Origin: Candidatus Latescibacterota bacterium
GTDB taxonomy: Bacteria > Latescibacterota > UBA2968 > UBA8231
Assembly (NCBI GenBank): GCA_965200315.1
Contig: OZ241362.1
Span: forward strand, 4,832,001 to 4,896,000
Reading direction: 5' to 3'
Length of the DNA stretch: 64,000 bases
Below, piece by piece: positions 3,802 through 28,468 of this stretch. The notes below the pieces were generated by a model. That model saw only the letters and a list, made by a program, of their open reading frames with translations. It had not been told where the DNA came from and did not search any database. The first letter of the stretch is position 1. Every line of letters begins with the position of its first letter. The position numbers and the translations under genes were made by a program.

Positions 3802-3843
3802 GCATTTTGTTAAGAGGTTCTTGCCCCTGATTTTTATCGGCGA

Positions 3844-5394
3844 TCAGGCGGAATTTTTGAATTCGACACTGTAGAGCTCGCCGCAGCGCATCTGAAAGCC
3901 CAGCGAGATCGGCCCTTCGCCTTGGTGGCCCAAGTCGGCTTCGCCGTTCCAGGTCACTTCGCGATCTAGGTGGTCGCCCACTAGCCAATCGCAGTCCTCG
4001 AATGAGCGGCCGGGCAGGGGCTGGTACTTGCGGTCCATGACCTGCACCTTTACGCTGCCTCCGGGCACGGTCTTGAAGTTGAGGTGGACGCGGCGCTGCT
4101 CAACTGCTAGCTGAAAGGTTCTGAAGCGCCCCTCTACCGGTGCTTCCAAGGCAGCGAGCCGTCCCTTGGGCCACCCAGCCCAGGCAATGTGCCCGTGCGG
4201 GGGCTGGCGCAGATGCTTGTGAGGCTCTGGCGAGCCGCATATAGTGATGCCCATGCGCTCGCCGGGCAAAGGCACTAGGCCGACGCCGGCTGACACCGCC
4301 CCCTCGACCCATGTGCCCCCATCGCCGGGTTCGCACACTGGTCCGCCGGGCACGAAGTTCCACACCACATTGTCCGGGCTGGCGGCCAACACGAAGCTGA
4401 AGGAATCGTCGATCAAGCGCCAGCGCAGCGGGAACATGAGGTGGTAGTCGGTGGTGCCCGGCATTTTTGTTTTGGAATTGGCGTACCACAAATCGTAGGG
4501 TTCAGCCGCGGCGTTGGGCCAGAAGACTTCCTCGGACAGGGGTAGGCGGCGGAAATCTACAGAAGCAGTGCGACCGATGCTGCGGCGGTTGAAGAAATGG
4601 CTGCGGCAATAGGCCACGTACTGTCCCAGCACTGGATCGTACTCGCAGACATTGAGGGTGTCGCTGATTTGCGCGACGAGCGGATCGGGGATGGGCGTCC
4701 AGCTAAAGCCGTCGGGCGAGATGGCGCCGAACAGGCCATCCCACTTTTCTGCCTCCAGATTGAGCGCCCCCACCTCGCCGGGCCTCTGCTGCAGGTAGCG
4801 CTCCTTTTGCGCTGGGCTTAGCTGGCCTATGTAGATCATTTTGTAGCGCTCTTCTGAAGAGGCCGACTCATCCTTGAATACGGTAGCACCGTGCAGACCG
4901 GTCTCTTCGACTTGGGGCAGCCCGTAGACAATATTGTTGTCCTTGGAACCCTTGCGATCGATCCGGCCCTGCGCGGGAAAGCGCCAGTTTTCACCGTCGT
5001 CCGATTCGGCGTAGCAGATGTAGTCGGCGGCGCCTATGGGGTATTTTTCGTGGCCGACATGTTCGCCCGCGAACAATTCGTACCAGAGGCGGTAGCGCCC
5101 CTCTTCGCGGATTACGGTGCCGGGCCAGATAAAGCCTTCGTCCGCCGCTGGCAGGAGGAAAGGCTCGCTCTTAGTCGCTGGTTTGGCGCGCAGGCGGATG
5201 CCGGTGGGCATGTAATTCGGCTCGTGTATCAGCGGAGGTCTCTCGTCGTTGGTCCAGATGCGCAGCCATTGACCTTCGGCGTTGCGCCAGCCGGTCGAAT
5301 GACTGCCGTGATGGATGTAGCGCCAGTCGTGAAAGTAGATAATATTCGACGGCAATTTGTAGGGCGGGCGCTGGTTGCGGATGGGAGAAATCAC
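3844..5394 (-). CDS. Putative five-bladed beta-propeller glycoside hydrolase-like protein
   Basis: 516 aa. GTVIREEGRYRLWYE, ICYAESDDGENW, ERYKMIY, SPDGFSW, SDT.N...YDPVLGQYVAY, followed by a C-terminal beta-sandwich-like region. No signal peptide. Confidence 0.65.
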   Translation of the reverse strand: MISPIRNQRPPYKLPSNIIYFHDWRYIHHGSHSTGWRNAEGQWLRIWTNDERPPLIHEPNYMPTGIRLRAKPATKSEPFLLPAADEGFIWPGTVIREEGRYRLWYELFAGEHVGHEKYPIGAADYICYAESDDGENWRFPAQGRIDRKGSKDNNIVYGLPQVEETGLHGATVFKDESASSEERYKMIYIGQLSPAQKERYLQQRPGEVGALNLEAEKWDGLFGAISPDGFSWTPIPDPLVAQISDTLNVCEYDPVLGQYVAYCRSHFFNRRSIGRTASVDFRRLPLSEEVFWPNAAAEPYDLWYANSKTKMPGTTDYHLMFPLRWRLIDDSFSFVLAASPDNVVWNFVPGGPVCEPGDGGTWVEGAVSAGVGLVPLPGERMGITICGSPEPHKHLRQPPHGHIAWAGWPKGRLAALEAPVEGRFRTFQLAVEQRRVHLNFKTVPGGSVKVQVMDRKYQPLPGRSFEDCDWLVGDHLDREVTWNGEADLGHQGEGPISLGFQMRCGELYSVEFKNSA

Positions 5395-5432
5395 GGTGTT
5401 GTCCTTTGCCGAGAATGCGGCTTGGTTGCCAG

Positions 5433-8369
5433 TTATAGGAGCCGTCCATATTCGGTAAAGCCGATTAGGACGCGGGCGAAAAAAGTCAGCGCATCAAAGG
5501 CATCGCTGTCCCGCGATTCCTCGTCGAATGTCTTGACCTCCCGCTGCAATCCCACGATCGTGCGCAGATCGTAGCCGAAATACTTCGAGCGGTTGTTCAC
5601 GTTGAGATACAATGTGTGCTGGTCAAAACTGTTGCGGGCATTGACCCGGTCCTCGACCCGGTAGGGCAGCGGCCCCAAGCCTTGGATGCCCAACTGTAGT
5701 TGGCTGCGCTGCATCAGCGGTAGGGTACAGCGCAGGATGGGAATGACACTGAGTTCCGAGCGCACGGTGCGGTGGGTGTAGCGGCCGTCGAGTTGGCGGT
5801 CGGCGGCTTGGTCCACTAGGCGCAGCAGCAGAACCTTGAACTGGGGTTGGATCTGCAGCCGGTGCCAATGCCAAGTGTAGTCGGCGCGGCTGACCCAAGT
5901 AAAGAAGTCGAGCCGTTTGTCGCGTTGGACTAGGCCGCCGGGCAAAGGACCGGCTTGTTGCCAGTTGAAGCGCAGGCGGATTTTGTGGACCATCTGGAGG
6001 GTGGACCAGGGATTGAGCCAGCTCTCCAGATAGGTGTCGTTGACGTAGCTGTTGCGATACAGCAGCGGGTCGGCGCGGAAATTGTTGGTGAAAGAGGGCT
6101 TATTGCCGGCGACCAAGCCGCGAAAATCTGTATCTATGCGCTTCGGCCGTTCGACCAGCACGGAGAATTCGTCGGCAATATCGTCTTTGACGTGGCGCAG
6201 GTGGTTTTCGAAAAACAGCCGCTGCAGCCGCCCCAACTCTTCGCGCCGGTAGGTCACCAGTGCGTAGGTCGATTTGTTGCGCCCGCCGCCCGCGATTTGT
6301 TCGATGTCGTAGCGCCCCGCCCCCAAAGACCACTCGGACGTCAGGTCCAGTTGGCCGAATAGGTGGATGCCGCGCTGGTCGGCGTCGTAGGGGTAATCGG
6401 GGTCTAGGTCGTCCTCGCGCACATCGGGATCGTCGTTGTTGTTGCGGTCGAGGCCGTAGAAGAAGTCGTTGGATTCGACGTAGTACATGAGGAAGGGCTC
6501 GACGTAGTCGGGCACATCGTTGAAGTTGCGGTTGGTGTCGGGCAGGCCGTCGTTGTCGTCGTCTTGGCCGGGAAACACGCCGTCGATGTCTTCGTCTTCG
6601 CGGTCGTTGGGTTGCCCCTGAAGATTGCCTACGCGCTTGTCCGGGTAGCGGTCGCCGTCCTCGTTGTCCTGCACCAGATCCCAGAAGATGGTGTTGTTGG
6701 TCAGGCCGGCCAGCGTAGTTTCTGTCAAACCGATTTCAAATGGTACAAAGGTGCGCATTTCCGTGTGAAAGTCTGGATTCATGGCAAAAACTTCGGCCCC
6801 GAGGCGGCCTCCCTTGAACCAGCGCACGGCATTGATGTACCAGGCCGATCCTTTCTCGGAGAAGCGCGGCCCCCGGTCGTACAGTGTGGTCTCGTCCATG
6901 CGCGCCGGAAAGCGGGAGTAGCGCGCGGAGCGGGCGTATTCTCCGTTGATTTCTAGGCCGGCTAGGGCAAGGTGCATATCGGTGCTGTAGGTGAAAAGCG
7001 ACGTGTTTTCGCCCACATTGATCCGTCTTCTGGCCAGATTAGAGCCGTCCTGCACATTGCCATCGGCGCGCAGGACAAGCCGGTAGAATGTGCTCACGTA
7101 CTGATTGGGATAGCCGCGTCCCCGCGGATTGCTGAGATTGAGGGTAGCCACTTCTACTCGGTAGTCATTGGCCATCGCCGCTTCCACGGCCACCGATTCC
7201 ACGTAGGGCTCCTGTGACAGATCGAAGAGGAACACCAAGTGCTCGTTGCCGTCGGCTTGGAGGATCTCCTCGGATGATTCGAGTTTGAACGTGGCTAGCA
7301 GCCCTGCGAGGTTGGTATTCTTACTCACGTCAATGCCGGCCTCGTGGTCGGCGCGATAGAGGTAATCGGCAAAGAGCGGCATATCGTTTCTGCCGCGGTA
7401 GTAGAGCGTGGCCATCTGGTAATAGCCCCGAGGGCTAGTGTAAATGGTCGGGTTGAATTGGCCCGTCAGCCGGGAGATGGTGCCCACCTGCGTATCTACA
7501 CCTTCGAAGTGGCGAATCACTGTTGGCACGATATCGGGCCGGGCTTCGCCGTTAAGTATGAGTTGCGCTTCCTGCACCAAGGCACCGCCGCGGCCGTCGT
7601 GGGGCGAGTCATCGGTAAAGCGCACCACAATCAGGTCCATGGACGGCAGCTTGGGTCTCAGGGAACCTTTGAGGCTGTTGTTGTCTTGGGTGCTTTGATA
7701 CACGTGCGTGTTCACGCCGTTTAGGCCCAGCCGCAGGGTCCCGATATCTGTTTCCAGTCGCGTCCCCAATAGGATGGTCGAATCATCAGCAAAGTGCGTA
7801 TTTTCGATGGCCCAGGGGGGAACGGATTCGATGTAAAAATGAGGGCGTTCGATGCGCGATCCTAGGAAGGTGAAGCGGGCATAAGGCGTGGCCAAATCGA
7901 AGCGGACACCATTAAAGTCAACTTGCGACAGGGTCAACGGCGTGAAGCGGGCAATCAGTCCATCGCCGACAATGGCGCTGTAGCCCCAGTCGTTATAGCT
8001 GTCGCGGCCCACCACCAGAAAATCGAAAACCGTGCTCCACTGGTTGCGATCCTTGAAGATGCTGCTGCCGTATTCCTGACCGAGCGTGCGGCGCTCGGTC
8101 CAGTCGTACAGGTCGTAACCCGTGATGAGGGGATCGCCGAAGGAATCGTAGAAGGCCCGAGGTCGGTCGGCGTAGGGGAAGGTGTGGTCCGGGTAGTTGG
8201 AATAGCCCTGAAAGGCGTAGTTATTGTACTGGGGCAACTGCCGCCAGAGAAAGTCTTGGGAAGGCAGAATCTCGGGAATGCCCAAGCGCGGCGTTTGCGC
8301 CCAGCTCGGGACTATTGCCCACAGCAGCACTAGGAGCACTCCGCAGATGTGTATTGTCGGCTTTTTCAT
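5433..8369 (-). CDS. Large exported protein of unknown family (paralog 1); probable outer-membrane protein with Asp-rich Ca-binding repeats
   Basis: 978 aa with signal peptide. Shares YxNY, YDxFG, DSYxxW, NG(I/V)R(W/F)D, GxFPGxDxxxDG, PDYxEPFL and PDYPY with 10446-13172 and 13177-15891. Amphipathic C-terminal strands (FFARVLIGF). Confidence 0.75.
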   Translation of the reverse strand: MKKPTIHICGVLLVLLWAIVPSWAQTPRLGIPEILPSQDFLWRQLPQYNNYAFQGYSNYPDHTFPYADRPRAFYDSFGDPLITGYDLYDWTERRTLGQEYGSSIFKDRNQWSTVFDFLVVGRDSYNDWGYSAIVGDGLIARFTPLTLSQVDFNGVRFDLATPYARFTFLGSRIERPHFYIESVPPWAIENTHFADDSTILLGTRLETDIGTLRLGLNGVNTHVYQSTQDNNSLKGSLRPKLPSMDLIVVRFTDDSPHDGRGGALVQEAQLILNGEARPDIVPTVIRHFEGVDTQVGTISRLTGQFNPTIYTSPRGYYQMATLYYRGRNDMPLFADYLYRADHEAGIDVSKNTNLAGLLATFKLESSEEILQADGNEHLVFLFDLSQEPYVESVAVEAAMANDYRVEVATLNLSNPRGRGYPNQYVSTFYRLVLRADGNVQDGSNLARRRINVGENTSLFTYSTDMHLALAGLEINGEYARSARYSRFPARMDETTLYDRGPRFSEKGSAWYINAVRWFKGGRLGAEVFAMNPDFHTEMRTFVPFEIGLTETTLAGLTNNTIFWDLVQDNEDGDRYPDKRVGNLQGQPNDREDEDIDGVFPGQDDDNDGLPDTNRNFNDVPDYVEPFLMYYVESNDFFYGLDRNNNDDPDVREDDLDPDYPYDADQRGIHLFGQLDLTSEWSLGAGRYDIEQIAGGGRNKSTYALVTYRREELGRLQRLFFENHLRHVKDDIADEFSVLVERPKRIDTDFRGLVAGNKPSFTNNFRADPLLYRNSYVNDTYLESWLNPWSTLQMVHKIRLRFNWQQAGPLPGGLVQRDKRLDFFTWVSRADYTWHWHRLQIQPQFKVLLLRLVDQAADRQLDGRYTHRTVRSELSVIPILRCTLPLMQRSQLQLGIQGLGPLPYRVEDRVNARNSFDQHTLYLNVNNRSKYFGYDLRTIVGLQREVKTFDEESRDSDAFDALTFFARVLIGFTEYGRLL

Positions 8370-8382
8370 CTGCCCATTTCCA

Positions 8383-10449
8383 TTAGTACACCACGGCTAC
8401 GACGCGCAGGCGGCTTTTTTCTTCGCGCTCGAGAAGGAGCCGCACGCGCACTAGGTAGAGTCCTGGTGCCACTAGTTCGCCGGCATCGTTCCTGCCGTCC
8501 CATAACGTGGACACGTATTCGCCCGCGCTCAGGGTGGCTGCATATAGGGCGCACACAGGCCGGCCTTGGACATCGAATATGTCCACCTCTACTACTTGAG
8601 GCTCGCTTATCCTCGCTAAGGTAAATTCGATCGCTGTTTCGTCGTTGATGCCGTCGCCGTTGGGGCTAAATGCCTGTGGTACCGGGCGCACATGACTCAA
8701 TAGGGGCCCCTCGACACCACTGGCAGACACCTGCCACGAGCGCGGCTGGCCGCTGTCTGTATCGGGTTCAATGTTCTCCTCGGCATCCAGCGTCGCGCCT
8801 CCGTCTGGACCAGAGACTTGGGCGCGGAACTCGAAGACATTGCTCAACAGCCGTCCGCGGAAACGCATTTCTAGGGTGCCCGCTTGGTGCCAGGGCTCGG
8901 CCAGTACTATATCCAGTGCCGTGCTCGATGCTGCGATTGCGGCGATTTCTATTCCAGACGGGGGCACAATTTCTTCTAGCTCGATCTGACTGGGTAGGGC
9001 AACACGCACCCGCTCTACTCCTAGATCGTCAGCACTGAAACTTAGCGCTAGGCGATACGTGAAAAGGGTGTCGCGGCCCAGCACGGCCCGATTGGGCTCG
9101 ACCCAGCCGCGGACCAGCGAAGCAGGGATCTGGTCGGTGAAATTGACAATCAGACTGTCCAAACGCGGGCCCGCGGCTTCGGATTGAGTTTCCATATTGA
9201 CCCGGTATTGTAGGAAAGTGCGCGGTTCGGGCACCTGCAGCAGGGCCGGACTGGTGTGCACCGGCGCGCTCCAATCGCTCCAAGTGCTGCCGTCGTGCGA
9301 GCTGCGGAATTGCAGCCCGAGCGCGGTACCGTCCGGCACTTGGCTGCCCCAGCGCACGGAGGTAAAATTCTTGCGCTCTCCGGGCCGTCCTAGGTCTAGG
9401 GGCGGCGAGACAAAGTTGCCCGCAGGAGCAATACCGCTGCCCAGCACCTGAATCTCAGCTACTTTGGCGCGCTGCAGCGCATCGACCTCGGCGATGATCA
9501 CTTGCAGGTAACGGGCAAAGACCGGGGCAAAGGCAATGGCTGTGCGCTCGGGTTGATCAATGCCGTGCAGCACACCCATCTCGCTCCAGCCAAACTGGTC
9601 GTTGCTTACTTGGACAGCGTAGCCGCGCAGGGTATTCTGGACAAACTCGTCGGCGTTTCTGCCCTGAGTCAGGACCCGCACCTCGCTGATTAGACGCCGG
9701 TTCAGCAGATCCACTTGGGCAATGGCGTTCAACTCGGTCGGATCTACGGTCCAGCCGGTATTGAAGCGGCCGTCGAATACTTCTGGGCGGTTGGAGGGCA
9801 GTCTGAACGCTAGGTTTTCTCCCTCCACTGAACGCAGACTCAGGCCGCCGGCTGGCTGGCCTATGTCGATGCCACCGGGAAAGCCGGCGATTACATCTGC
9901 CTGCAGCGTATCGGACCAGCCGGATACGCCCGCTCTGTCTAGCTGACCGCGCTGTACTTGCTGCCAAGTGTCCAGTCGGCTCACATCCTTTGTCTGCCAG
10001 CCCGCGTCTTGTTGGGATTCGCCGCTCCAGTACCAAAAATTCTGCAACGCACCAAAGGTGCTGACCCATGACTGCTCTGCGGCGCTTACCTCCACAACTA
10101 GACCGCTGCCGTTGCCCCGGCCGCGATTGACGACGCGCACGGCCAGCTCGTTTTTGCGCCGCTTGAGCTCGACTGGGTACTCTTCCATGGTGGTCCAATT
10201 GTCGTCGCTGCCGATGGTTTCGCCGTTGAGGAAAACCTCGTATTCGTCTGCTGCAGTCAGGCGCAGCAGGGCCGATCCCGCCTCGGGTGCATTGAGGGTA
10301 TGCCGGTAGTACACGGTCTGCTCCCAGTGGTCAACAGTCCATTCCTCCGCATGACCTGTGGTGCCCACCAGCAAGGCCGCGGCCAATAGCAATGGGCGCA
10401 ACTGCAAAGGCGGCGATTTACCCGTCTGGTCTGTTCTCGGCCACCTCAT
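8383..10449 (-). CDS. Secreted discoidin/galactose-binding-like + FlgD protein with gliding-motility (CHU_C-like) C-terminal motif
   Basis: 688 aa. LTAADEYEVFLNG, an F5/8C-like segment (ARYLQV...VAEIQV), PQAFSPNGDGINDET and WDGRNDAGELVAPGLY. Paralog of 15893-17944. Confidence 0.8.
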   Translation of the reverse strand: MRWPRTDQTGKSPPLQLRPLLLAAALLVGTTGHAEEWTVDHWEQTVYYRHTLNAPEAGSALLRLTAADEYEVFLNGETIGSDDNWTTMEEYPVELKRRKNELAVRVVNRGRGNGSGLVVEVSAAEQSWVSTFGALQNFWYWSGESQQDAGWQTKDVSRLDTWQQVQRGQLDRAGVSGWSDTLQADVIAGFPGGIDIGQPAGGLSLRSVEGENLAFRLPSNRPEVFDGRFNTGWTVDPTELNAIAQVDLLNRRLISEVRVLTQGRNADEFVQNTLRGYAVQVSNDQFGWSEMGVLHGIDQPERTAIAFAPVFARYLQVIIAEVDALQRAKVAEIQVLGSGIAPAGNFVSPPLDLGRPGERKNFTSVRWGSQVPDGTALGLQFRSSHDGSTWSDWSAPVHTSPALLQVPEPRTFLQYRVNMETQSEAAGPRLDSLIVNFTDQIPASLVRGWVEPNRAVLGRDTLFTYRLALSFSADDLGVERVRVALPSQIELEEIVPPSGIEIAAIAASSTALDIVLAEPWHQAGTLEMRFRGRLLSNVFEFRAQVSGPDGGATLDAEENIEPDTDSGQPRSWQVSASGVEGPLLSHVRPVPQAFSPNGDGINDETAIEFTLARISEPQVVEVDIFDVQGRPVCALYAATLSAGEYVSTLWDGRNDAGELVAPGLYLVRVRLLLEREEKSRLRVVAVVY

Positions 10450-13172
10450 TGTACTGGCTCCAGTCCCACGACCATGCGGATAAAAAACTGTTCAAAATCA
10501 ATATCCTCGAATTTCCGCGTACGGTCCTTCATGCGGCGTCGGCTGATCTCGTAGCCGGCTGTAAGCGCCATATCGAAACCAGCGTATTCAAAGCGATTGA
10601 CCAGCATGAAAAGCGCATCGCGGGTGTTGTAGTCTTGGTCTCCATTTCGGCCATTGCGGTAGATGCTGGGCAGCGCGGATAGCCCTTGGACCCCGCCGCG
10701 CAGGAAGGTGCGTTCGGTGAATTTGAAGTCGGCCACTATCATGGGGAAGCCGAAGACCTCGGACACTGGCTGAATGCGCCCCCGGTCGTCGGTGCGGCGG
10801 CGCAGCATGAGTTTGTAGCGCGGCGATACCTCTAGCCCGCCCAAGCGCCAGCGGTAATCTGCTCGCAACACCGAAGTCCACAGCTGAATCGCATTGTCGC
10901 GGCTCTTGGCGCTGAGCTGTTGGTTGACTTTGAACTTGAGATTGGCACCGACAAAGAGGTTGCGCACCCCCCGGAAGGCGAAGTCGACGAAGGCGGTGTT
11001 GACGGCGCTGTCCCGCATTAACAATTCGTCTTCGACAAAGGTCTCAATGGTGGTACGCGGATTAAAGATGTCGAAATTGGCCACGTCGCCAAAGCGGAAT
11101 ACGCCGTCGGGAATGTCGTCCTGTACCCGCTTTAAGAAGTCCACGGCCCGCACTTCACCCCAGTTGCCGAAGCGCCGCTGGTACTCGGCTTTGGCGTACC
11201 ACACATCCGCCCGCTGGCCACCCCAGATGGCCTTCATATCGTAGTGCCCAAAGGTCAGTTCCAGCGCGCGCTGGGGCTGAAAGCGCACAAAGAGATGGTA
11301 GCCCTTGCGGTTGAGGTCATACGGGTAGTCCGGCTTGTTGTCGTTTTCGCGCACGTCCATGACGCCATTGTTGTTCAGGTCGTCGCCGTAGTCGAAATCG
11401 TCTGGATCGACGTCGTAGAGCAAAAAGGGCTCGAAATAATCGGGTACTTGGTTGCGATTGCGGTTGGTGTCAGGGGTGCCGTCTTGGTCCTTGTCCAGAC
11501 CGGGGAAAATCCCGTTCTGGTCCTCGAAACTGGGTATGAAGAAATCGTCTGGAAAAGGGTCTTTGTCGTCGTTGTCGTCAACCGTGTTTAGGTCGAGGGT
11601 ATTGTTCAGGCTCTCGTCGGTCGAACCCAACTCGCCGGCGAAAGGCCCGGTGCCAGAGGCCGCGTATGCCGCTAGCGTCAGGTCGGTCACCGAAAGCTCG
11701 GTGCGGTACTCGGGGCCGAGGTGGAACAGCTCCCCACCAACGGCAATTTTCGGGGTAAATTCCCGCTCGATATTGAGCAGATAGGCGTAGCTACTGCGGT
11801 CGTGGCGCCGGCCGCGGTGATCGTGGACGGGGTACTGGCGGAAGTTGAAGCTGTGGGCCCACTCGCCCTTGAAGCGGAAGCCCTTTACGTCCGTGCTCAG
11901 ACCTAGGCCAGCCAAGGTGAGACCGGTCTGGCGGCCGTAGTCAAAGCGGATCTGCTCGACATCGGCGCCGGCGGATCCACGCCCTTTGGAGCCGGCCAAA
12001 CTTTTGTAAAAAGTGGCGCGGTTGCGCTGGGCTGGTTCATTGCGGGATTCGCGCGGGTCAACGGCGTAGATCTCCGACACGCTGACGCGATAATTGCCAC
12101 TCAGCAGTGCCTCAAAGGAGGCCGACACCACGTCCTCGTCCTCGGGCAGCGGGAACCAGAACAAGACATAGTCCTTGCCATCGGCGCGGAAAGAACCATC
12201 GGGCTCGGGTGTCTGCAGCGGATAGGTGCCCAAGCGGTGGCCCTTTAACACTTCCACGTAGGGCGGAATTGGCCGTTTGAAGAAGAAGTCCTTGTTGGGA
12301 AAGTTCGGATTAAAATCCTCGGTGTTGTGGCGCGTGACAAAAGGTTCAATGTCGTCTCGTCGCTCGCCGTTGAGCAGGATATTGACGTCGAAGACCCGAG
12401 CTCCGTTGCCGTCCAAGGGCGAGGTGTCTTCAATGCGGACCACCAAGTAATCGATTACCTGTACCCGATTGGGCAATTGACCCTTCATGCCATTCCAATC
12501 GGGCGGCGAGCGAGTGTCAATGCGGAAGAGGTTCACATAAGAGGTACTCAGGTCGATGGTGCGCCAGTGCCATTGCCAGTGGCCGCCCAACAGGTACGCA
12601 GCAAAGGCCGCGGTGCTCAGGGCACTAGCGTCCTCTTGGGAAAGTACGGGCTTGTCCATGCGCGAGGCTAGGACCGAGAAGTTGTGCCTTTCATTGGCTA
12701 AATCCCAGCGGATGCCATTGAAGGCGGCCAGATCTAGGATCAACGGCGAGAAATGGGTGCGGATGCGGTCGCCGATGATCAGCCGAGTCTGCCAGTTATT
12801 ATAGCTGTCGTCGGCTACCATCAGGCGGTTGAGAAACCCCTCGTAATTGTTCGGCTTGGCAATAGTGCTGCCGCTGAATATTTGGGCCGGATCGTCAAAG
12901 CGGCGGTTCTCCCGCAGGTGGTACACCTCGACGCCGTTTACCAGAAAGTCGCCGAACTCGTCGTACACGGGGTTGGCCGTGCGCGTGATGACATTGCGGG
13001 GCCAAGTCCGGTACCCCTCTAGGCCGTAGTTGTCGTAGGTGAGCAGGCCGGGGCGGTAGAGCATTAGGCGGGCACCGGTGGTGTGGGGCTTGAGAAGTCT
13101 GGGCTCGCCTTCGCCACGCACCGTCGTTGCTAGGGCCGCTATAAGTACGCCTGTTGAGATCGCTTTTAGCAT
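10446..13172 (-). CDS. Large exported protein of unknown family (paralog 2)
   Basis: 908 aa with signal peptide and the same conserved blocks. Ends EQFFIRMVVGLEPVQ. ATGA overlap with the downstream gene. Confidence 0.75.
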   Translation of the reverse strand: MLKAISTGVLIAALATTVRGEGEPRLLKPHTTGARLMLYRPGLLTYDNYGLEGYRTWPRNVITRTANPVYDEFGDFLVNGVEVYHLRENRRFDDPAQIFSGSTIAKPNNYEGFLNRLMVADDSYNNWQTRLIIGDRIRTHFSPLILDLAAFNGIRWDLANERHNFSVLASRMDKPVLSQEDASALSTAAFAAYLLGGHWQWHWRTIDLSTSYVNLFRIDTRSPPDWNGMKGQLPNRVQVIDYLVVRIEDTSPLDGNGARVFDVNILLNGERRDDIEPFVTRHNTEDFNPNFPNKDFFFKRPIPPYVEVLKGHRLGTYPLQTPEPDGSFRADGKDYVLFWFPLPEDEDVVSASFEALLSGNYRVSVSEIYAVDPRESRNEPAQRNRATFYKSLAGSKGRGSAGADVEQIRFDYGRQTGLTLAGLGLSTDVKGFRFKGEWAHSFNFRQYPVHDHRGRRHDRSSYAYLLNIEREFTPKIAVGGELFHLGPEYRTELSVTDLTLAAYAASGTGPFAGELGSTDESLNNTLDLNTVDDNDDKDPFPDDFFIPSFEDQNGIFPGLDKDQDGTPDTNRNRNQVPDYFEPFLLYDVDPDDFDYGDDLNNNGVMDVRENDNKPDYPYDLNRKGYHLFVRFQPQRALELTFGHYDMKAIWGGQRADVWYAKAEYQRRFGNWGEVRAVDFLKRVQDDIPDGVFRFGDVANFDIFNPRTTIETFVEDELLMRDSAVNTAFVDFAFRGVRNLFVGANLKFKVNQQLSAKSRDNAIQLWTSVLRADYRWRLGGLEVSPRYKLMLRRRTDDRGRIQPVSEVFGFPMIVADFKFTERTFLRGGVQGLSALPSIYRNGRNGDQDYNTRDALFMLVNRFEYAGFDMALTAGYEISRRRMKDRTRKFEDIDFEQFFIRMVVGLEPVQ

Positions 13173-13176
13173 GGAC

Positions 13177-15891: not shown

Positions 15892-15892
15892 C

Positions 15893-17944: not shown

Positions 17945-18408
17945 TGCTCAGCTATTTCTCGTTGTGCTCCCGACTCGAGGTCGAGGCTTACAGTGACGAG
18001 TTTGGTAACTGGATTGACTACCAGACGGTGATATTGGCCGAAGGGCTTCCAGCGCTTTGAGCCGTTTTCCCAGACTTGTTCCGGCTCTTGCTCTGGCACG
18101 GACAGGCCAATGCGCCGCAGTGCTTCCGCCGTATCAAAGGGGTCCATCTTTTTGAACGTATAGGTCACATAAGATGCGCTACCGTGTATCAAATCCACGT
18201 AAACCCAAGTGCTATCTCCATCCGCATCTCTCCACTGTAGAGTGGTTATTTTCTCGGAGCGCACAAAGTCGAAATCCGGCTCGCCCAAGCGTTCTTTTAG
18301 GGTTTGTTCGGTTTTGTGCAATATTTGCTGCACTGCGAGCTGCGGCACTTCTTCCTGGTCGCAAGCGACTAGCAAAAAGAAAGTGGCAAAGAGTATGCTA
18401 GCTTGCAC
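17941..18408 (-). CDS. Small hypothetical lipoprotein
   Basis: 155 aa, GTG start, lipobox LLVA-C. Overlaps both neighbouring genes. Confidence 0.65.
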   Translation of the reverse strand: MQASILFATFFLLVACDQEEVPQLAVQQILHKTEQTLKERLGEPDFDFVRSEKITTLQWRDADGDSTWVYVDLIHGSASYVTYTFKKMDPFDTAEALRRIGLSVPEQEPEQVWENGSKRWKPFGQYHRLVVNPVTKLVTVSLDLESGAQREIAEQ

Positions 18409-19649
18409 TATTCCACCTTGAAAGTGAAGGGGTAGGTCACCAATACCGGCAGTGGCGTCAACCGGGGTGCTGTGGCCCGCGCTCCGGGGCCGCTCGTCGG
18501 CCCATTCTCTCCACTCGCGGCACCAGCCGTCGGCACCTGCAGGGCCCCTATATCAATAGGCCGGAAAGCCCACCGCATAATTTCTTGTTGCAGGCACTGG
18601 CCCACGGCTTGGCTGCCCACGCTCGAGTTGGTGGCCTTGGCCTCGGAAACGGCACCGCCTACCTCAATGGTGAAGCGCATGGTCACTGCGCCTTCGGTGG
18701 CCTCTCCTTTGTCGAATGCTTCGACGAAGCAGCGATTGAGATCCGCCAAACGCTGACGCACCACGGCCCGAATGGCACTCAGGCTGCGAGTGCTCTCACC
18801 GGGCAGGTTGCCCATGAGCTGGCTAGGCCCATTCTCGGAAATCATCAGTGTTTCGGCGGTAGAGCCGCTGGTTGCTCCCTTTTGCACGACGCGATCTTCC
18901 ACTTCGTGCTTAAAGACAAAGCGCAGATCCCGCTTTTCCACGGGTTTGTCAAAAGCCCCGAAACGCAAGACGAAGTCCTTCAGGATTAGCACTACTTCCT
19001 CGGTCTCGGGATAAACCGGATCGAAGACGATGAAACCGCCGTAATTCTCGCCCTTAAATATGGGCTGGTCTTCCTCGTAGTTATAGCTGCGCACCATGCC
19101 CATGCGCAGCTCGAAGCGATAGAACTCGTTGCCGCTCTGGCCGCGCTGCGAGCGGTAGTAGTTTTCAAAGTTGCCATAGGGCGACGACGAAGTGATGCCG
19201 TAGGCGCGCAGGAACTGGCCTTGGTCGGTCTCCAATACGGCTGCCAATGGGTCGAGCATGACTTTGGGCTGAGTGCGGTTGAAAATAGTGACCTTAAAAA
19301 CGGTGAAGCGGTTGGGCGTATACCCTAGGCGTGTATCGGTCCAGTTGCCGTAGGTATAGGGATTGGTCGAGTACTTGCCGCGCCCCGATTCGTTGGGGAA
19401 GAGGGCGTTGAGCTTGGCGTCGGTCATGTGCTCTACCTCGAGGCGCAGACCGGCTAGTTCCCAAGAGATCGCGTCATCCTCCTGCAGACTATAGGCCCCT
19501 TCCGTTGCCGCGGACTCGATGACCGGCAACAGCAGGGTTTCGCGCTTGACGGCTGTGGGAAAGAGAAAACAGCCTGATAGCAGACCGCACAGAGCAATGA
19601 TACAGATCAGTCGGCCGCGTCTCATCGCGCTATTATCCTCTTTACTCAT
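18408..19649 (-). CDS. Lipoprotein with C-terminal AgmX/PglI (TonB-C-like) domain
   Basis: Lipobox LLSG-C. C-terminal RSLSAIRAVVRQRLADLNRCF...GAVTMRFTI...G.V...VGQCL...W.F...VTYPFTF, the pattern seen in GltG/GltJ-type domains. Confidence 0.7.
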   Translation of the reverse strand: MSKEDNSAMRRGRLICIIALCGLLSGCFLFPTAVKRETLLLPVIESAATEGAYSLQEDDAISWELAGLRLEVEHMTDAKLNALFPNESGRGKYSTNPYTYGNWTDTRLGYTPNRFTVFKVTIFNRTQPKVMLDPLAAVLETDQGQFLRAYGITSSSPYGNFENYYRSQRGQSGNEFYRFELRMGMVRSYNYEEDQPIFKGENYGGFIVFDPVYPETEEVVLILKDFVLRFGAFDKPVEKRDLRFVFKHEVEDRVVQKGATSGSTAETLMISENGPSQLMGNLPGESTRSLSAIRAVVRQRLADLNRCFVEAFDKGEATEGAVTMRFTIEVGGAVSEAKATNSSVGSQAVGQCLQQEIMRWAFRPIDIGALQVPTAGAASGENGPTSGPGARATAPRLTPLPVLVTYPFTFKVE

Positions 19650-19676
19650 GTAGTTCGCCTTTGGAAACTGTCGCCT

Positions 19677-20915
19677 TTAGGGGGCAGTGGTTGACTGGTT
19701 TTGCTCCGTGTAGAAATCGATCTGTTGCTGGGCAATGGAGCCTTGCTGAGTCAGGGCGAACACCACCAGATTGACGCCCATTTGTAGCTGTGGCTCGTTG
19801 CGGAATTCCTTTTCCCAGGCGCGTCCATATTCCTTGGTGGTGAAGATCGCCACCAGCCGCTCGCCCAGAAAAATGCCTTCGAGAAAGGGCACTTCGGGAT
19901 GAAAGTCGCGGCTGTACACAAGCCTTTCCTGAGTCCGCTTTGGCGGCGGCCCATCGTCGAAGTCGTAAAAGCTGTGGTATATGGGGTGATCGTTGGGGAT
20001 GACCTTGAAGCGCGCATCCCTCCCCAGCGAAGCCTTGAGCATTTCCCGTAGCGAGGCTTCGGCCGGGGTGTATTCGGTGGCGGCATCCCGGCCCAACTCG
20101 CTCATGGCCTCGACCATGACAAAGCCGCCCTGCCGCAAATAGTCGCCGAGATTGGCGATCTCTTGCTGGGTGGGTTCAAAGGCTTGATCGACGGAGATGT
20201 ACACGAAGGGTGCCCGGAAGATAGCGCGCGAATCGAGGAAGAGATGGTCGTCCACTTCGGCGCGAATCTGGGTAAATCCATTAATCGCTTCGACCAGCTC
20301 GAAGATGGCCCGCTGGGTTGACGGTTTGAAGTCGTTGCCCCAGGCGAGGGCTAGGTAAACGAAGCCGGTGATGTTCTGTTTGTCGGTCGGATCTTGGACC
20401 ACCAACCCCTTATAACGGCCGATATCCAGCGCTTCCAAGTCGAGGAATTCTTCCTGCATACTGATGCGCTTCTCCGGCTCTTTGGGGCTTTTGATGGCGA
20501 CGCGCTGCACTTCGGGCTGGACCACTTCTAAGCCTAGATCCGCGCCGCTTGCAACGCCGAAGCGAAAGGTCTTGATCTTGCCGACTAGGTCGGGGAGACG
20601 AATCTGGGGTTTGCGGGTGATTTGCGGTTTGGCCGCCCGCACCTGACGGGTCATCTGCCGTTGGGGGATTTGCTGCTTCTCAAACTCAAAGGCTTTGGTC
20701 AGGCGCGGCTTGCGTACCACTAGGTGCATCAGCGGGGGTTTGGGCGCTTTTTTTTCTTCTTCCCTAGTAGCTAGGTAGATTGCGGGTATGGCCAACAGAA
20801 CGATAGCCACTGCCAGCGCCCGGTAGAGCACTCCGCGCTGTCGGCGCAGTAGTTCCTCCAAGCAGAGCGCGTCCGTTGGCGTGGCGAAGCGTTTGGCATC
20901 GATTCGAGCGGCCAT
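19677..20915 (-). CDS. Membrane-anchored DUF4159-like protein
   Basis: One N-terminal TM helix and a Pro/Lys-rich stalk. C-terminal APFVYIS...EIANLGDYLRQGGF...IPNDHPIYHSFYDF...LEGIFLGERLVAI...MGVNLVVFALTQ. Start placed at the ATG just after the TPR stop. Confidence 0.75.
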   Translation of the reverse strand: MAARIDAKRFATPTDALCLEELLRRQRGVLYRALAVAIVLLAIPAIYLATREEEKKAPKPPLMHLVVRKPRLTKAFEFEKQQIPQRQMTRQVRAAKPQITRKPQIRLPDLVGKIKTFRFGVASGADLGLEVVQPEVQRVAIKSPKEPEKRISMQEEFLDLEALDIGRYKGLVVQDPTDKQNITGFVYLALAWGNDFKPSTQRAIFELVEAINGFTQIRAEVDDHLFLDSRAIFRAPFVYISVDQAFEPTQQEIANLGDYLRQGGFVMVEAMSELGRDAATEYTPAEASLREMLKASLGRDARFKVIPNDHPIYHSFYDFDDGPPPKRTQERLVYSRDFHPEVPFLEGIFLGERLVAIFTTKEYGRAWEKEFRNEPQLQMGVNLVVFALTQQGSIAQQQIDFYTEQNQSTTAP

Positions 20916-20922
20916 GGCATCC

Positions 20923-23900
20923 CTATAAGCGGTTGGTTTCGATCCACTCTTTGTGCATGCGGGCAAAGCGATAGGCCTCGGCCTGCTCGTCGGCTAGGCG
21001 CTCGAGGACCTGATCGTAAACCTGCACCGCATCCTTCCACTGCCCCAAAGACTCGTAGCAGACCCCCATGTTGCTCAGCGCACCGATCTCGCTTTCGGTG
21101 CCGGGATAGTCGCGCGCAACTTCCGCAAAGCCGGCGGCCGCCCGGCGGAACTGGGCCGGGTCTTGCTCCTCAAGGGCTTGGGCAAAGATCGCCTCTACTT
21201 CGGCGTAGCGCAGGTAGGCCACCACTTCGAGCAGGTCGTCTATTAATTCGGGAACCTTTTGCGCTACCGAACTGCTCGGAAAGCGGCGGATGACTTCTCG
21301 GTAGGCCTGCAGGGCTTTGTCGTATTCCTTCTCGTTGTAGTAAAAGTCGCCGATGGTGAACTGGGCATTGGCCGCTAGAGTGCTGCTTGGGTAGTCGGAA
21401 ACCACGCTTTGGAAGGCGGCGATGGCTTGGGACGTCCGTTCCATATTGAGATGGGACCAGGCCAGATTGTAGAGCGCATCGTCGGCGAGGTCTGAGCGCG
21501 GGTGCATTTTGAGCAATTGCTGGTAGTGCTCTTGCGCCCTGTCGAATTGGCCCAAGTTGTAATGGGCCTCCCCGGCCCGGAACAGTGCGTCGGGTACCAG
21601 CTCGCTTTGGGGATACGTGCTGGCTAGATCGGCAAAGGCGACAGCGGCTTGCTCAAACTGAGTCCGGTTGAAATGGGCGTATCCCAGATAGTAGAGGGCA
21701 TAGGGGCGGTTGCGATGACCGGGCGTCTTCTGCAAATAGGTTTCGAGCACTCGCACGGTTCCCGCGAGGTCGTCCTGCTCGAATAGGGCCTGCCCCAGAG
21801 CAAAGCGCATATCGGCCGAATAATAGGAGTCTGGGTAGTGGGACAGTGCCTTTTGGTAGGTGTTGATTAGCGCTTGGGCATCGCCCCGTGAGCCGTGGGC
21901 GTCGCCCATTAGGAAGTACGCTTTCTCTTGGAAGAAATAGGGTTGCTCACCGCGCACAGCGGGCAAGTCCAAGGAGAGAATCCGCTGACATACGGCCTCG
22001 ACCTGAGCGAATTCCTCCAAGTTGTAGTGAAGTTCGGCTAGCACCACTAGGTGTTCGGCGCACTCGACGGAATCAGTTGCCGCCGCTACTAGGGCCCGGT
22101 AGTCCTCGATGGCTTCTTCCTGATGACCTAATTCGAGATGGGCCAGACCAAGCATGCGCTGGGCCGCCCTTGCCAACTCCTCGTTGTCGCTGTGCAGCAA
22201 CATCTTCAGGTCGGCTGTCGCCTCTTGGTAGCGTTTTAGTTTGAGCAGGCTTACGCCGCGACCGTAGAGGGCCCCTAAGCGCACCTCCTCGGCGTCGGCC
22301 ATTTCGATGGTGTGTCCCAGTGCCTCCACCGCGGCGACAAATGCCTCCGTTTCGATCAGGGTGCGCCCTTTCATGTAGTGAAGACGGGCCTGTTCGTTTT
22401 TAGCGGTACTGGCCTCCAAGCCCGCCTCCAGTGCCGCTAGGGCCCCCGAGAAATCACCCGCCGCAGCCAGCAGGTTGCTCGCTTCGAGCATGGCCTTGGG
22501 AAACAAGTTTGAAGTGCGATCAAGCTGTCGGAAAAACTCCACGGCCTTGCCGGGCTGGCCCAAATCTCGGTAGCACAGAGCGAGTTCAAAATAGGCCCCG
22601 TGGCGCTGCGGGTCCTCGGAGTATTTTTGCAGGATGGACTCGTAAGCGGCGATGGCCTGCTTGAAGGCTTCTTGTTGGTAGTAGATGCGGCCTAGTTGGA
22701 AAAGTGCGCTGCGCACGTAGGCTGGGTCTTGGTCGGCGGCGACGATCTCTTGGTAGCGTTTTAGGGCCCGGGCCGTGTGCTCGGCACTGCCCAACTCGGC
22801 ACTGCCCAAGGCACCGAGCATCTGGTTGCACAAGGCGATATTAAACGGGGTAGCCGCTAGGACTAGTTCGCTACTGGGGTAGTCGGCGGCAATGCGTTCG
22901 TACGCGGCGATGGCCTGTGCATAGGCCAAGCGGGCCTCGTCGTCCTCCGCGGCTTCGCTCTGGAGTTCGGCCCGCTCGTAATGGGCCCGCCCAATTTTGT
23001 AAAGGACCCAAGGCGGTGCCAGACCAGCGGCTTTGGCCACGTCCCCATACGCCTCTAGGTAGAGTTGGTATTCGGCGATGGCGCGCTGATAGTCGCCAAT
23101 GCCGTAGTAGTGTTCGGCCAGCAGGGATTGCATGCTGGCCTGAAACATGCGGTTGCGGCTACCGTCGATGGCCTCTCGGTAGGTGCGCACTGCCGCTTGG
23201 TCGTCGCCACCTTGGGTGTACATATCGGCTAGGCGGATGTAGGCTTCGGCCACCAGTTTTTGTTCCTGGGCGAAGGCGGTTATAACCTTGCTATAGGCGG
23301 TAGCGGCACCGGCAAAATCCCCGCTTTGGGCGCGACAATCGCCTACTTTGATCTGGGCTTTGGCCGCCAATTCTAGCGCAGTCTCGTCCACCAAGCCGGC
23401 TATTTTCTCGCGCCGCATCTTCAGCAGGTCGCGCTCGCTGAGGTGGTCGATGTCTTGGCGGGTTACTACCTCTTGGTACCAAGAAGTGGCCTGAGCATAG
23501 TGCTGCTGTAGAAAGTAGGCTTCGCCGATTTGGAAAAGTGCCCGATCTGCGCGGTATCCTTTGGGAGAGTGCCGCACTAATTCCTCAAAGGTGGTGATGC
23601 TTTCTTGGTACTGCCCCAACTTAAAATGGGCCCAGCCGATGTTGTAGAGGGCGTTGTCGAGGTATTGGCTGTCGGGATATTTCTGCCGAAAAGCTCGGCC
23701 TTCTTCTATGGTGCGCTGGTACTCGCCGCTTTCATAGAGGCAGTTGACTAGCCGGTTGCGGGCCAGTTCCCGCATCTGTGGGGAGGTAGTCTGGGCTTCG
23801 GTCTTGAGGAAGTAGGCGGCCGCTTCTGCGAAGTCGGTCGCTGTTCGTTCGGCGAGTTGGCGTTGGCGTTCGGGGTCGCGCTCCCGGGTGGCGCGCCGCT

Positions 23901-24186
23901 GGGATTCTTGGGCGCGCTTGAAGTAGCTATTACCCGTTTGGTAGGGGGCGATTTCTTTGATTGGGGCCGTAACCTCGCCGACCGCGACCTCAATCTCCGC
24001 CGTGTAGAGCAGCGGGCTTTCAATGGCATTGATGCGCTCGTAGGTTGCGATGGCTTGCTCGTAGTCCTCGGCGGCGTAGAATTTCTGCGCCTGCTTGAAA
24101 GAAGCTCGTATTTCGTCCGGGGTCGGTACGAAGTAGGAGCCTACTACTAGCCCCAACAGAGTACCTACAATAAGCAGAGGTGTCAT
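20923..24186 (-). CDS. Large membrane-anchored TPR protein (BamD/CpoB-like repeats)
   Basis: N-terminal hydrophobic anchor followed by many TPRs of the form A...Y...YPxS...A. Confidence 0.85.
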   Translation of the reverse strand: MTPLLIVGTLLGLVVGSYFVPTPDEIRASFKQAQKFYAAEDYEQAIATYERINAIESPLLYTAEIEVAVGEVTAPIKEIAPYQTGNSYFKRAQESQRRATRERDPERQRQLAERTATDFAEAAAYFLKTEAQTTSPQMRELARNRLVNCLYESGEYQRTIEEGRAFRQKYPDSQYLDNALYNIGWAHFKLGQYQESITTFEELVRHSPKGYRADRALFQIGEAYFLQQHYAQATSWYQEVVTRQDIDHLSERDLLKMRREKIAGLVDETALELAAKAQIKVGDCRAQSGDFAGAATAYSKVITAFAQEQKLVAEAYIRLADMYTQGGDDQAAVRTYREAIDGSRNRMFQASMQSLLAEHYYGIGDYQRAIAEYQLYLEAYGDVAKAAGLAPPWVLYKIGRAHYERAELQSEAAEDDEARLAYAQAIAAYERIAADYPSSELVLAATPFNIALCNQMLGALGSAELGSAEHTARALKRYQEIVAADQDPAYVRSALFQLGRIYYQQEAFKQAIAAYESILQKYSEDPQRHGAYFELALCYRDLGQPGKAVEFFRQLDRTSNLFPKAMLEASNLLAAAGDFSGALAALEAGLEASTAKNEQARLHYMKGRTLIETEAFVAAVEALGHTIEMADAEEVRLGALYGRGVSLLKLKRYQEATADLKMLLHSDNEELARAAQRMLGLAHLELGHQEEAIEDYRALVAAATDSVECAEHLVVLAELHYNLEEFAQVEAVCQRILSLDLPAVRGEQPYFFQEKAYFLMGDAHGSRGDAQALINTYQKALSHYPDSYYSADMRFALGQALFEQDDLAGTVRVLETYLQKTPGHRNRPYALYYLGYAHFNRTQFEQAAVAFADLASTYPQSELVPDALFRAGEAHYNLGQFDRAQEHYQQLLKMHPRSDLADDALYNLAWSHLNMERTSQAIAAFQSVVSDYPSSTLAANAQFTIGDFYYNEKEYDKALQAYREVIRRFPSSSVAQKVPELIDDLLEVVAYLRYAEVEAIFAQALEEQDPAQFRRAAAGFAEVARDYPGTESEIGALSNMGVCYESLGQWKDAVQVYDQVLERLADEQAEAYRFARMHKEWIETNRL
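22780..22809. repeat. 15-bp tandem duplication inside the TPR gene
   Basis: CTCGGCACTGCCCAA x2, in frame (LGSAE-LGSAE). Confidence 0.85.
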
Positions 24187-24426
24187 AGTACCTATCAACG
24201 AGAAAGAGCACGCCGGCACACCAAATTTTGCAGATCAGTCCAAACGGTAAGAAAAGGCAAATGCGGTTGCAAGTATTTCTCCATGCGGTTTGAGAACGGG
24301 CTTTTTACGCTAGCATATAGAGGAAAGGGGCAGATGCTTTTTTGGCATGTTGCTAGCGGTAAAGGCGGTAAAGTATATTATCGGCCCGGCGCGCCCCATT
24401 CGAGTCCAACGAGCCGCACAAACCCC

Positions 24427-28459: not shown

Positions 28460-28468
28460 AAAGGTGCT

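Follow-up and report, generated by a model that had tools for sequence, protein, structure and literature searches.

A candidate modular envelope system with predicted giant outer-membrane barrels in a Candidatus Latescibacterota bacterium

Among the closest described systems are the type-B cargo proteins of the secretion system of type IX (T9SS) and their PorP/SprF barrels, such as SprB with SprF and PG1035 with PorP. Linkage of type-B cargo with shuttle genes in pairs, and type-B signals that need up to 235 residues, are described in PMC12618676, and an anchoring role of PorP is shown in PMC9143113. The Agl-Glt machinery of Myxococcus has a widespread "core complex" of a TolQR-like motor, the TonB-like GltG and tetratricopeptide repeat (TPR) proteins, as set out in PMC3169522. 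The SusC/SusD polysaccharide utilization loci (PULs) and the TonB-dependent transporters (TBDTs) combine many diverged barrel and surface-binder cassettes with few ExbBD/TonB-type energisers. Several large barrels of the group formed by SlpA of Deinococcus, MtrB, LptD and SprA enclose a partner, either a protein or a lipoprotein, within the barrel lumen. The locus compared here with these systems is an operon in a 64,000-nucleotide stretch of DNA (the window) from a Candidatus Latescibacterota bacterium (GenBank assembly GCA_965200315.1, contig OZ241362.1, positions 4,832,001 to 4,896,000). Its nine open reading frames (ORFs) encode a TPR protein (T), a bitopic DUF4159 protein (U), a lipoprotein bearing an AgmX/PglI domain at its C-terminus (A), a second lipoprotein of 155 aa, two discoidin-type proteins (D; discA and discB) and three predicted giant barrels (X; X1 to X3). 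The gene families of this operon, their linkage and phyletic coupling, the T9SS core genes of the genome and the predicted fold of X are reported.

The locus shares with T9SS type-B pairs a D gene placed directly upstream of a barrel gene, many such pairs per genome, a long conserved C-terminal region of D with an Ig-like T9SS-type domain, and a barrel of the PorV/PorQ/PorP superfamily in the ancestral X cluster. It differs from them in that X, at ~900 aa and roughly 30 strands, has no relationship to PorP and PorV, that the X cluster also contains ExbB and ExbD together with a TonB-C-like lipoprotein, DUF4159 and a TPR protein of ~1040 aa, and that discA and discB lie below the curated type-A and type-B cut-offs. 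The many diverged barrel and surface-binder cassettes and few energisers are as in SusC/SusD PULs, as are surface partners (D) with carbohydrate-binding-type domains, but X has no Plug or TBDT barrel match, SusD is missing, D is of T9SS type rather than a lipoprotein, and the X/D cassettes are without glycoside hydrolases and the usual regulators. With Agl-Glt the system shares a motor of ExbBD/TolQR type, the AgmX/PglI TonB-like domain, a large TPR protein and outer-membrane barrels tied to a surface adhesin, whereas A, as a lipoprotein, differs from a bitopic FHA protein, no Glt component corresponds to DUF4159 or X, and there is no hint of motility. X is predicted to be a very large beta-barrel whose best Foldseek matches are SlpA, MtrB, LptD and SprA, but the TM-scores are 0.13-0.25 without family membership, and X has its own N-terminal extension and Asp/Asn-rich insert. 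Taken together, the system would function as a mixture of T9SS cargo-shuttle pairs and uptake of the TonB-dependent kind.

Judged from sequence comparisons, the operon appears to be an expanded copy of a modular envelope system that occurs in several candidate phyla of the Fibrobacteres-Chlorobi-Bacteroidetes (FCB) group. The cassettes of this system are tentatively read as PUL-like, with T9SS-delivered lectin proteins that would feed a giant barrel energised in the manner of TonB for the capture and uptake of glycans or other large nutrients; this reading is possible but falls short of probable. No description of the system was found in open-access PubMed Central and bioRxiv, where DUF4159 appeared only in a Pfam database article, and the same sources yielded no literature on type IX secretion in Latescibacter.

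Operon layout and protein families

The nine genes form a co-directional, tightly packed run on the minus strand within 24219-5433. T (24219-20923) has 1098 aa from GTG 24219, with an alternative ATG at 24186, 11 codons in, and an N-terminal hydrophobic anchor. It is followed by U (20966-19677, 429 aa, alternative start ATG 20915), A (19649-18408, 413 aa, lipobox LLSGC), the 155-aa lipoprotein gene (18408-17941, lipobox LVAC), discA (17944-15893, 683 aa, with an F5/8 type C domain and a C-terminal module of ~310 aa), X1 (15891-13177, 904 aa), X2 (13172-10446, 908 aa, scoring 910 bits with the X hidden Markov model), discB (10449-8383, 688 aa) and X3 (8369-5433, 978 aa). X2 and X3 are paralogues of X1 (34-36% mutual identity) and discB is a paralogue of discA (54% identity). 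The junctions from T to X3 are -44, +27, -1, -4, +1, +4, -4 and +13 nt, the first of which becomes +7 if U starts at ATG 20915. Signal peptides, lipoboxes and transmembrane anchors were judged by eye from the translations, and 35 window proteins were scanned with Pfam and NCBIfam. The initial annotation had described nine co-directional genes with gaps under 30 nt or overlaps, in agreement with the ORF coordinates, and its domain labels (TPR, DUF4159, AgmX/PglI, discoidin) hold in Pfam and NCBIfam, with FlgD_ig and CHU_C borderline.

X1 and X2 matched no Pfam or NCBIfam family, and X3 matched only SlpA_C (PF21620), below its cut-off (21.5 against 35). No POTRA or Omp85 family was matched by X in the same scans. 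An AlphaFold2 model of X1, built on a 39-sequence alignment (pLDDT 82.9, pTM 0.82), is nearly all beta-strand from residue ~110 to the C-terminus, with ~30 long strands counted from the DSSP string and not from coordinates, the strand number and the sidedness of the loops being provisional. From this model X is predicted to be a very large outer-membrane barrel. The conserved N-terminal extension (Y39, N41, Y42, Y68, D69, G72, G78) was modelled with low confidence. An acidic, Asp/Asn-rich insert at residues ~505-620 of X1 has many invariant Asp and Gly columns; it presumably resembles thrombospondin-type-3 repeats and may bind calcium.

A search of 5.8 billion proteins returned 46 X homologues, of which the four with a descriptive source name were all called "hypothetical"; one homologue is assigned to Ignavibacteriales. 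Of 1.84 billion cluster representatives, 1,170 matched the X profile at E <= 0.001, and 393 did so at E <= 1e-30. The best Foldseek matches of X1 were SlpA (8ae1, 7zgx), MtrB (6r2q), LptD and SprA with E values of 6e-10 to 1e-5, and at TM-scores of 0.13-0.25 and 18-27 A root-mean-square deviation (rmsd) they are generic. A wide VIA fold search placed FhaC, the SusC-like BT1762 and CdiB at the top (Z 12.4-12.8); the aligned part was limited to residues 430-904 or 635-904, and the rmsd was 9-10 A for two of these rows. The similarity in both fold searches is that of barrels in general, so X was assigned to no family from them. In the ESM Atlas a stored X homologue (P0002) led to "hypothetical" Latescibacterota clusters, the nearest named cluster being DUF6029 (0.88, a lead only); the published proposal that DUF6029 is a polysaccharide porin was made from HHpred alone and is unrelated in substance. 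Membership of X in the PorP/SprF or PorV/PorQ barrels was rejected, with no match of X1-X3 to TIGR03519, NF033709 or NF033710 and an hhalign probability of 0.1% between the X profile and that of six PorV-like barrels linked to X in other genomes. A complex prediction for X1 (24-904) with the C-terminal domain of discA (565-683) was run without controls and gave a score of 0.00 and a mark of 0.32, which speaks neither for nor against binding. Two X genes of the genome appear broken, at 2085640-2088272 (ORFs of 608 and 258 aa) and at 680193-681583 (fragments of 379 and 122 aa), which suggests that both duplication and decay contribute to turnover of the family.

D proteins combine lectin-type domains with T9SS-like tails. 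F5/8 type C was matched at 34.5 bits by discA and 37.9 bits by discB (cut-off 28.2). The C-terminal ~310 residues of discA matched 102 other ORFs of the genome (103 targets including discA), the N-terminal parts of which diverge; with a C-terminal query at E <= 1e-8, 102 ORFs were then classed as D. At E <= 0.001, FlgD_ig was found in 49 of 55 D proteins scanned, CHU_C in 47 and F5/8 type C in 21, and enzyme families in none of the 55. An aromatic C-terminal residue, nearly always Tyr, follows an alternating hydrophobic strand in 100 of the 102 proteins (commonest endings VGVAY, VAVAY and VAVVY), and in 75 of 77 D proteins from other genomes, among them those of loci with Zixibacteria or Neomarinimicrobiota in the title; the same ending occurs in only 5 of 43 X ORFs. 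We take this ending to be like the C-terminal signal of outer-membrane proteins, here placed on a soluble Ig-like domain, and it suggests that the last strand of D pairs with a barrel. The curated models of T9SS cargo were missed by discA (TIGR04131, 18.0 against 35) and by discB (TIGR04131, 19.1 against 35; TIGR04183, 18.8 against 23). CHU_C exceeded its cut-off in discB alone (29.0 against 27), and the other FlgD_ig and CHU_C matches of these two proteins were borderline.

T matched the YbgF-type model TIGR02795 at 268.9 bits (cut-off 90.1), a score summed over 8 repeat stretches, and fell below cut-off for CpoB (143 against 383) and PorW/SprE (119.5 against 250). In U a basic linker rich in Lys and Pro connects a transmembrane helix to a periplasmic DUF4159 domain (PF13709, 103.7 bits, residues 208-405); the domain matches PDB 4i66, an uncharacterised Hoch_4089 protein, weakly (E 2e-4). 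A reached NF033768, the AgmX/PglI C-terminal model, with 61.3 bits (cut-off 40) and did not reach TIGR01352 (TonB, 17.7 against 27.1). Its matches to the Glt equivalogs GltG and GltJ (29.7 against 650 and 20.3 against 450) were confined to the C-terminal domain, and its profile found no match in the PDB sequence search. The AlphaFold2 model of A (pLDDT 87.0) has an N-terminal beta-sandwich, weakly similar in Foldseek to lipoproteins of the MPT63/YjhA type (E 2e-3 to 1.5e-2), and a C-terminal alpha/beta domain, weakly similar to TonB/TolA-like domains (6fip, E 0.019, prob 1.00; 6sly, E 0.068). A is a lipoprotein and has no N-terminal transmembrane helix of the TonB type. Fifteen paralogues in the genome share only its N-terminal domain. 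Across databases 285 homologues were found, many of them ~400 aa long; a precomputed TonB_C (PF03544) was present in 4 of 120 homologues listed, and 5 were named TonB family or AgmX/PglI at the source.

Elsewhere in the genome, SprA (496.6 bits, or 622.2 with its neighbours in frame) and PorU (615 bits) exceeded their cut-offs, and a PorV-like gene beside PorU scored 149.8 bits, under the cut-off of 250; none of the three lies in the window. Searches of the genome for GldM and PorP/SprF gave no match, but the control genomes were equally silent and the result is uninformative. SusD/RagB (PF07980) had no match in the genome, which is 94.7% complete, and was matched in the control, Bacteroides thetaiotaomicron; 13 TBDT barrel and 12 Plug matches were found. 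The 35 window proteins contain no Por/Spr/Gld, SusC/D or ExbBD family, as the initial annotation had also noted.

Cassettes in the genome and related loci in other phyla

The genome is a single contig of 5.36 Mb. The X profile recovered 43 ORFs in it, 38 of them full length and in 28 clusters, and X and D genes together make up 6.34% of the sequence. The D genes lie close to X (78 of 102 less than 10 kb away, against a mean of 14.1 and a maximum of 23 in 300 random trials; the other 24 are far from any X), as do 13 of 15 genes for A-type lipoproteins (1.9 on average at random). Upstream of a full-length X, the neighbouring gene on the same strand was D in 18 of 37 cases and another X in 7 more, and the usual order is A, one to four D, then X. 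Gene calls in the cassettes were greedy longest ORFs without a trained gene finder, so that neighbour counts are approximate, and at least one real gene, the PorV-like gene at 1.50 Mb, was displaced by an overlapping ORF. The genome has ~26 cassettes assembled from these families, and the operon of the window is one of them. In a scan of 86 further cassette genes the recurrent families were SurA-like parvulin peptidyl-prolyl isomerases (PPIases; 12), TPR proteins (8), FG-GAP/ASPIC (5), PMT_2 (5, four of them with TPR), DUF6785/6784 membrane proteins (2) and CBM9-like proteins (2). The count of at least 12 SurA-like double-parvulin PPIase genes within X/D cassettes amounts to unusually many paralogues of a periplasmic chaperone.

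Close paralogues of T, U and A occur at three further sites of the genome. The locus at 3.93 Mb has the order g624-like, D, X, X, X, T, DUF5683-like, U, A, a 307-aa gene, ExbB, ExbD, ExbD (g624 being a gene downstream of X3). At 1.36 Mb the order is CBM9-like, X, A, a 218-aa gene, D, PorV-like, X, T, ExbB, ExbD, ExbD, with U nearby. The locus at 1.50 Mb (1494000-1510000) has CBM9-like, A, PorV-like, T, ExbB, ExbD and U, with D divergent; because its operon contains no X, the energiser module can stand without a linked giant barrel. Three of six ExbB matches in the genome lie at these loci and none in the window, and the operon of the window is a rearranged copy without motor genes of its own.

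The closest loci in other genomes were titled Candidatus Latescibacterota, with some labelled Gemmatimonadetes. The full gene order of the operon recurs in other genomes at 88-95% protein identity, which marks the arrangement as more than chance. The order T, U, A, a 155-aa ORF, D, X, X, D, X and an ORF of ~516 aa was found in loci L026-L029, L033 and L078, with 93-95% identity in X, several of these being cut by the end of a contig or locus. Both D genes stood at the same spacing in 6 of 12 genomes of the same genus. Of 70 foreign loci, 48 have D as the gene immediately before X, and in 37 the gene immediately after X is T. Related genomes contributed many of them, so that the loci do not count as independent, and truncation at 10 kb or at the end of a contig makes absences uninformative.

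Locus L076, titled Zixibacteria, and locus L069, titled Neomarinimicrobiota, have the order D, a barrel of ~320 aa, X, T (~1040 aa), ExbB, ExbD, U, A. The order X, T, ExbB, ExbD is kept in loci titled Zhuqueibacterota (L067) and "Cytophagia" (L074) and in a locus from a metagenome-assembled genome (L080); U also lies within L067 and L080, and in these three loci D and A are elsewhere in the locus or outside the stretch covered. ExbB and ExbD stand beside T, U and A in 5 distant loci, and U follows ExbB-ExbD in loci of distant phyla. All six linked barrels of ~320 aa matched the PorV/PorQ model (best E 2.7e-25; the single score shown was 84.1 bits against a cut-off of 90), and four of the six also matched PorP/SprF. 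Comparison of these loci points to D, a PorV/PorQ-like barrel, X, T, ExbB, ExbD, U (DUF4159) and A as the probable ancestral order, with A often carrying a fused TonB-C-like domain like that of the window copy.

In 168 genomes of the phylum, X was present in 106 and A in 104; each was found in all 75 genomes of the bacterium's own family and in none of the 61 genomes of four other families (f2, f3, f4 and f14). On account of this shared family-level pattern, X and A are regarded as travelling together. SprA was present in 163 of the 168 genomes, including all 61 of the X-less families, and because it persists there X is regarded as an accessory to the T9SS and not as a core part of it. Genes related to glycans and transport border some of the related loci, namely GHL10 with a C-terminal domain, GH130, an SSF symporter and solute-binding proteins.

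These comparisons bear on the wider proposals of the initial annotation. The idea of a trans-envelope, energy-coupled complex gains strength from ExbB and ExbD adjoining T, U and A at the paralogous loci and in other phyla and from the C-terminal domain of A, which is TonB-C-like by family and weakly by fold. A link to T9SS cargo is supported by SprA and PorU in the genome and by a barrel of the PorV/PorQ/PorP superfamily that would lie ancestrally between D and X, and the conservation of gene order among relatives, offered as a check, was confirmed by the close copies and by the recurrence of the gene set in other phyla. A single dedicated nine-gene machine is not supported for an operon that has so many sister cassettes, and X as a T9SS subunit or PorP/SprF barrel is contradicted by the missing family match and by the absence of X from sister families that keep SprA.

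Proposed mechanism and competing readings

In the mechanism put forward, D would be exported by Sec and then by the T9SS of the genome, a PorV/PorQ-like shuttle would hand it over, and D would dock at X through its conserved C-terminal module. X would act as the outer-membrane conduit, and T, U and A could form a periplasm-spanning link from X to a proton-driven ExbB/ExbD motor, encoded at the sister loci and presumably shared with the window operon. Captured glycans or large nutrients would move inwards. Such a system would work like SusC/D or TBDTs while standing outside those families, and would have radiated into ~26 substrate-specific cassettes. A conduit rather than a mere anchor is suggested by the barrel of ~30 strands. 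Uptake is favoured because the combination of ExbBD and a TonB-C-like domain is the hallmark of gated import, because the D partners are of lectin type without enzyme families, because many barrels with few motors and a radiation into dozens of diverged cassettes resemble nutrient-uptake loci, and because the genome has no SusD match. The 38 X genes against 3-4 ExbBD modules mirror the ratio of TBDTs to TonB. A stronger form of the proposal, that D, the PorV-like barrel, X, T, ExbB, ExbD, the DUF4159 protein and the TonB-C lipoprotein make up a distinct and so far unrecognised class of outer-membrane machine coupled to the proton motive force, with a plug-less barrel of ~30 strands, present in several candidate phyla of the FCB group and radiated in one Latescibacterota family, is conceivable but somewhat doubtful.

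Several observations weigh against uptake. X1-X3 have no Plug (PF07715) or TBDT barrel (PF00593) match at E <= 0.01, and no TonB box is recognisable in X. Family scans and the ExbB search of the genome found no ExbB or ExbD in the window operon. The AgmX/PglI domain is confined to the window copy among nine A copies of the genome aligned. The 86 cassette neighbours include no glycoside-hydrolase catalytic family, and a single weak PL22-like match lies inside a PD40 propeller. Were X a replacement for TBDTs, the X-less families would need higher Plug counts, but the counts are similar (4-26 matches in the own family, 6-25 in f2, f3, f4 and f14) and there is no compensation, so that this version was set aside. 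The PorV-like gene and the order of cargo followed by barrel fit anchoring equally well.

Anchoring is the core of the main competing reading, in which a T9SS-fed platform displays D as adhesins or lectins, X is their cognate outer-membrane anchor or final destination, as PorP/SprF-like barrels are for type-B cargo, and nothing is imported; in some loci an ExbBD-type motor could move or tension the adhesin, as Agl-Glt does with CglB and the gliding motor with SprB. This is rather unlikely. In its favour, the genome has SprA, PorU and a PorV-like gene beside PorU, and the six barrels between D and X or beside T are all PorV/PorQ matches, four of them also PorP/SprF. A cargo gene and then a barrel gene at tiny gaps is the arrangement of type-B cargo/shuttle pairs in PMC12618676 and of PorP anchoring in PMC9143113, the ~310 conserved C-terminal residues of D are in line with the signals of up to 235 residues in the former, and a motor with a TonB-like protein, a TPR protein and an outer-membrane barrel resembles the Agl-Glt core complex as outlined in PMC3169522. 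The aromatic ending of D (100 of 102, and 75 of 77 elsewhere) could dock by strand pairing. However, a barrel of ~30 strands is far bigger than an anchor needs, the ancestral cluster would already hold a PorV/PorP-like barrel to which X is unrelated (hhalign probability 0.1%), discA and discB miss the curated type-A and type-B thresholds, and an anchor has no need of ExbBD, a TonB-like protein and a periplasm-spanning TPR protein. We also know of no precedent for an expansion to 38 anchors.

Envelope maintenance of the Tol-Pal or Glt-core type, with the system serving as an outer-membrane tether, in the assembly of a surface coat or in the handling of polysaccharide, X being SlpA-like and D the coat, is improbable. 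It would account for the YbgF/CpoB-type TPR repeats in which T is rich, the weak SlpA_C match in X3 and in one homologue, the Foldseek matches to SlpA barrels (E 3e-9, TM ~0.2), the recurrence of PMT_2 glycosyltransferase-like and DUF6785/6784 membrane proteins in the cassettes, and the sister locus at 1.50 Mb, which has A, PorV-like, T, ExbB, ExbD and U but no X. It sits poorly with the loci scanned, in which no TolB, Pal or SLH domain was seen, and with 38 diverged copies and absence from sister families of the same class, which are unexpected of a housekeeping function. Less probable still is a dedicated export conduit, in which X would be the translocon for the neighbouring D in the style of two-partner secretion, with SurA-like PPIases as chaperones and ExbBD and the TonB-like protein supplying energy. 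The adjacency of D and X genes, the 12 SurA-like PPIase genes in the cassettes and the very wide barrel agree with it, and the top rows of the VIA search include the TpsB proteins FhaC and CdiB (Z 12.4-12.8), though as generic matches at 9-10 A rmsd. Against export stand the T9SS-type C-terminal domains of D, which the T9SS of the genome would already export, X without POTRA or Omp85, and the uneven pairing of one to four D per X with 24 of 102 D far from X.

Latescibacterota, Zixibacteria and Marinimicrobia-type phyla are uncultured, and little is known of uptake and binding at their envelopes. Two unannotated families, X and D, fill 6.3% of this genome in a clearly modular arrangement; linked both to the handling of T9SS cargo and to an energiser of ExbBD/TonB-like type, they are a concrete candidate for large-substrate capture or surface attachment in such bacteria. 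DUF4159 and a giant-barrel family of ~1,170 clusters gain a first context, and annotation could be improved for hundreds of "hypothetical" genes per genome. If the distinct class proposed above is real, it would represent an independent solution to the task of SusC/D in Bacteroidota, in which DUF4159 would be an energy-transducing partner of a new kind and D would dock by its terminal-Tyr strand.

Transcripts and neighbouring genes

All nine genes of the initially annotated operon are present, but the run does not stop at X3, as two more co-directional genes follow on the minus strand, g516 (5394-3844, 516 aa) 38 nt after X3 and g624 (3665-1791) 178 nt after g516. The positions of both are kept in orthologous loci of other genomes, and g516 is a probable member of the operon. 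It had no match in Pfam, NCBIfam or the PDB sequence search and has 13 further paralogues in the genome; an ORF of 516-536 aa after the last X in L026-L029 and L033 was matched to it by size and position alone. The g624 protein has a T9SS type-A-like C-terminal domain (FlgD_ig 69 bits; TIGR04183 27.2 bits, reaching the cut-off of 23), and a homologue opens the paralogous locus at 3.93 Mb. The 155-aa lipoprotein had no Pfam or NCBIfam match and no paralogue in the genome, and its position was seen only in close orthologous loci, where an ORF of 155 aa (L026-L028, L078) or 167 aa (L035) fills the same slot, compared by size and position alone. On the other side of the operon a CBM9-like gene (24283-25170, plus strand; CBM9_2 67.3 bits) is divergent from the T end, and CBM9_1-matching genes of ~310 aa occur at the 1.36- and 1.50-Mb loci and in L022. 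A scan of window 1-6000 for promoters and terminators found such sites no more frequent than in shuffled sequences.

Four metatranscriptome libraries from one study contained 67-87% of the sampled words of a 9.6-kb piece; runs with small shares of words were left out. Contigs from these libraries cover the whole operon and bridge its junctions, one (14378-21366) running from X1 to T and another (4500-8669) from g516 to discB. These data are compatible with transcription and co-transcription of the operon, although contigs are no proof of a single transcript and carry-over of DNA is possible. Contig depths vary several-fold along the locus. In three of four RNA runs the contig depth was 61-78 at 4500-8669 (g516 and the start of X3) and 2-17 across 8641-24286, a hint of an internal promoter or of differing stability, though contig depths cannot rank genes. 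At window position 22780, 15 bases inside the T gene are missing from contigs of two RNA runs (X2 and X4 in the run numbering), which probably reflects an in-frame strain variant.

Genes of nutrient type occur near the operon, at window 27449-35965 and 54587-57738, and encode ABC permeases and solute-binding proteins as well as a sulfatase (30516-31955) and a hydrolase of the HAD type. Two genes of the Type ISP restriction-modification type are present at 36696-41600 and 57754-61122 (Type_ISP_C, 381 and 141 bits), with a DNA methylase gene at 48231-49742 between them. The G+C content is 0.46-0.53 at 40-52 kb of the window and ~0.59 elsewhere, and this stretch, together with the Type ISP genes and the methylase gene, may be a mobile defence island.

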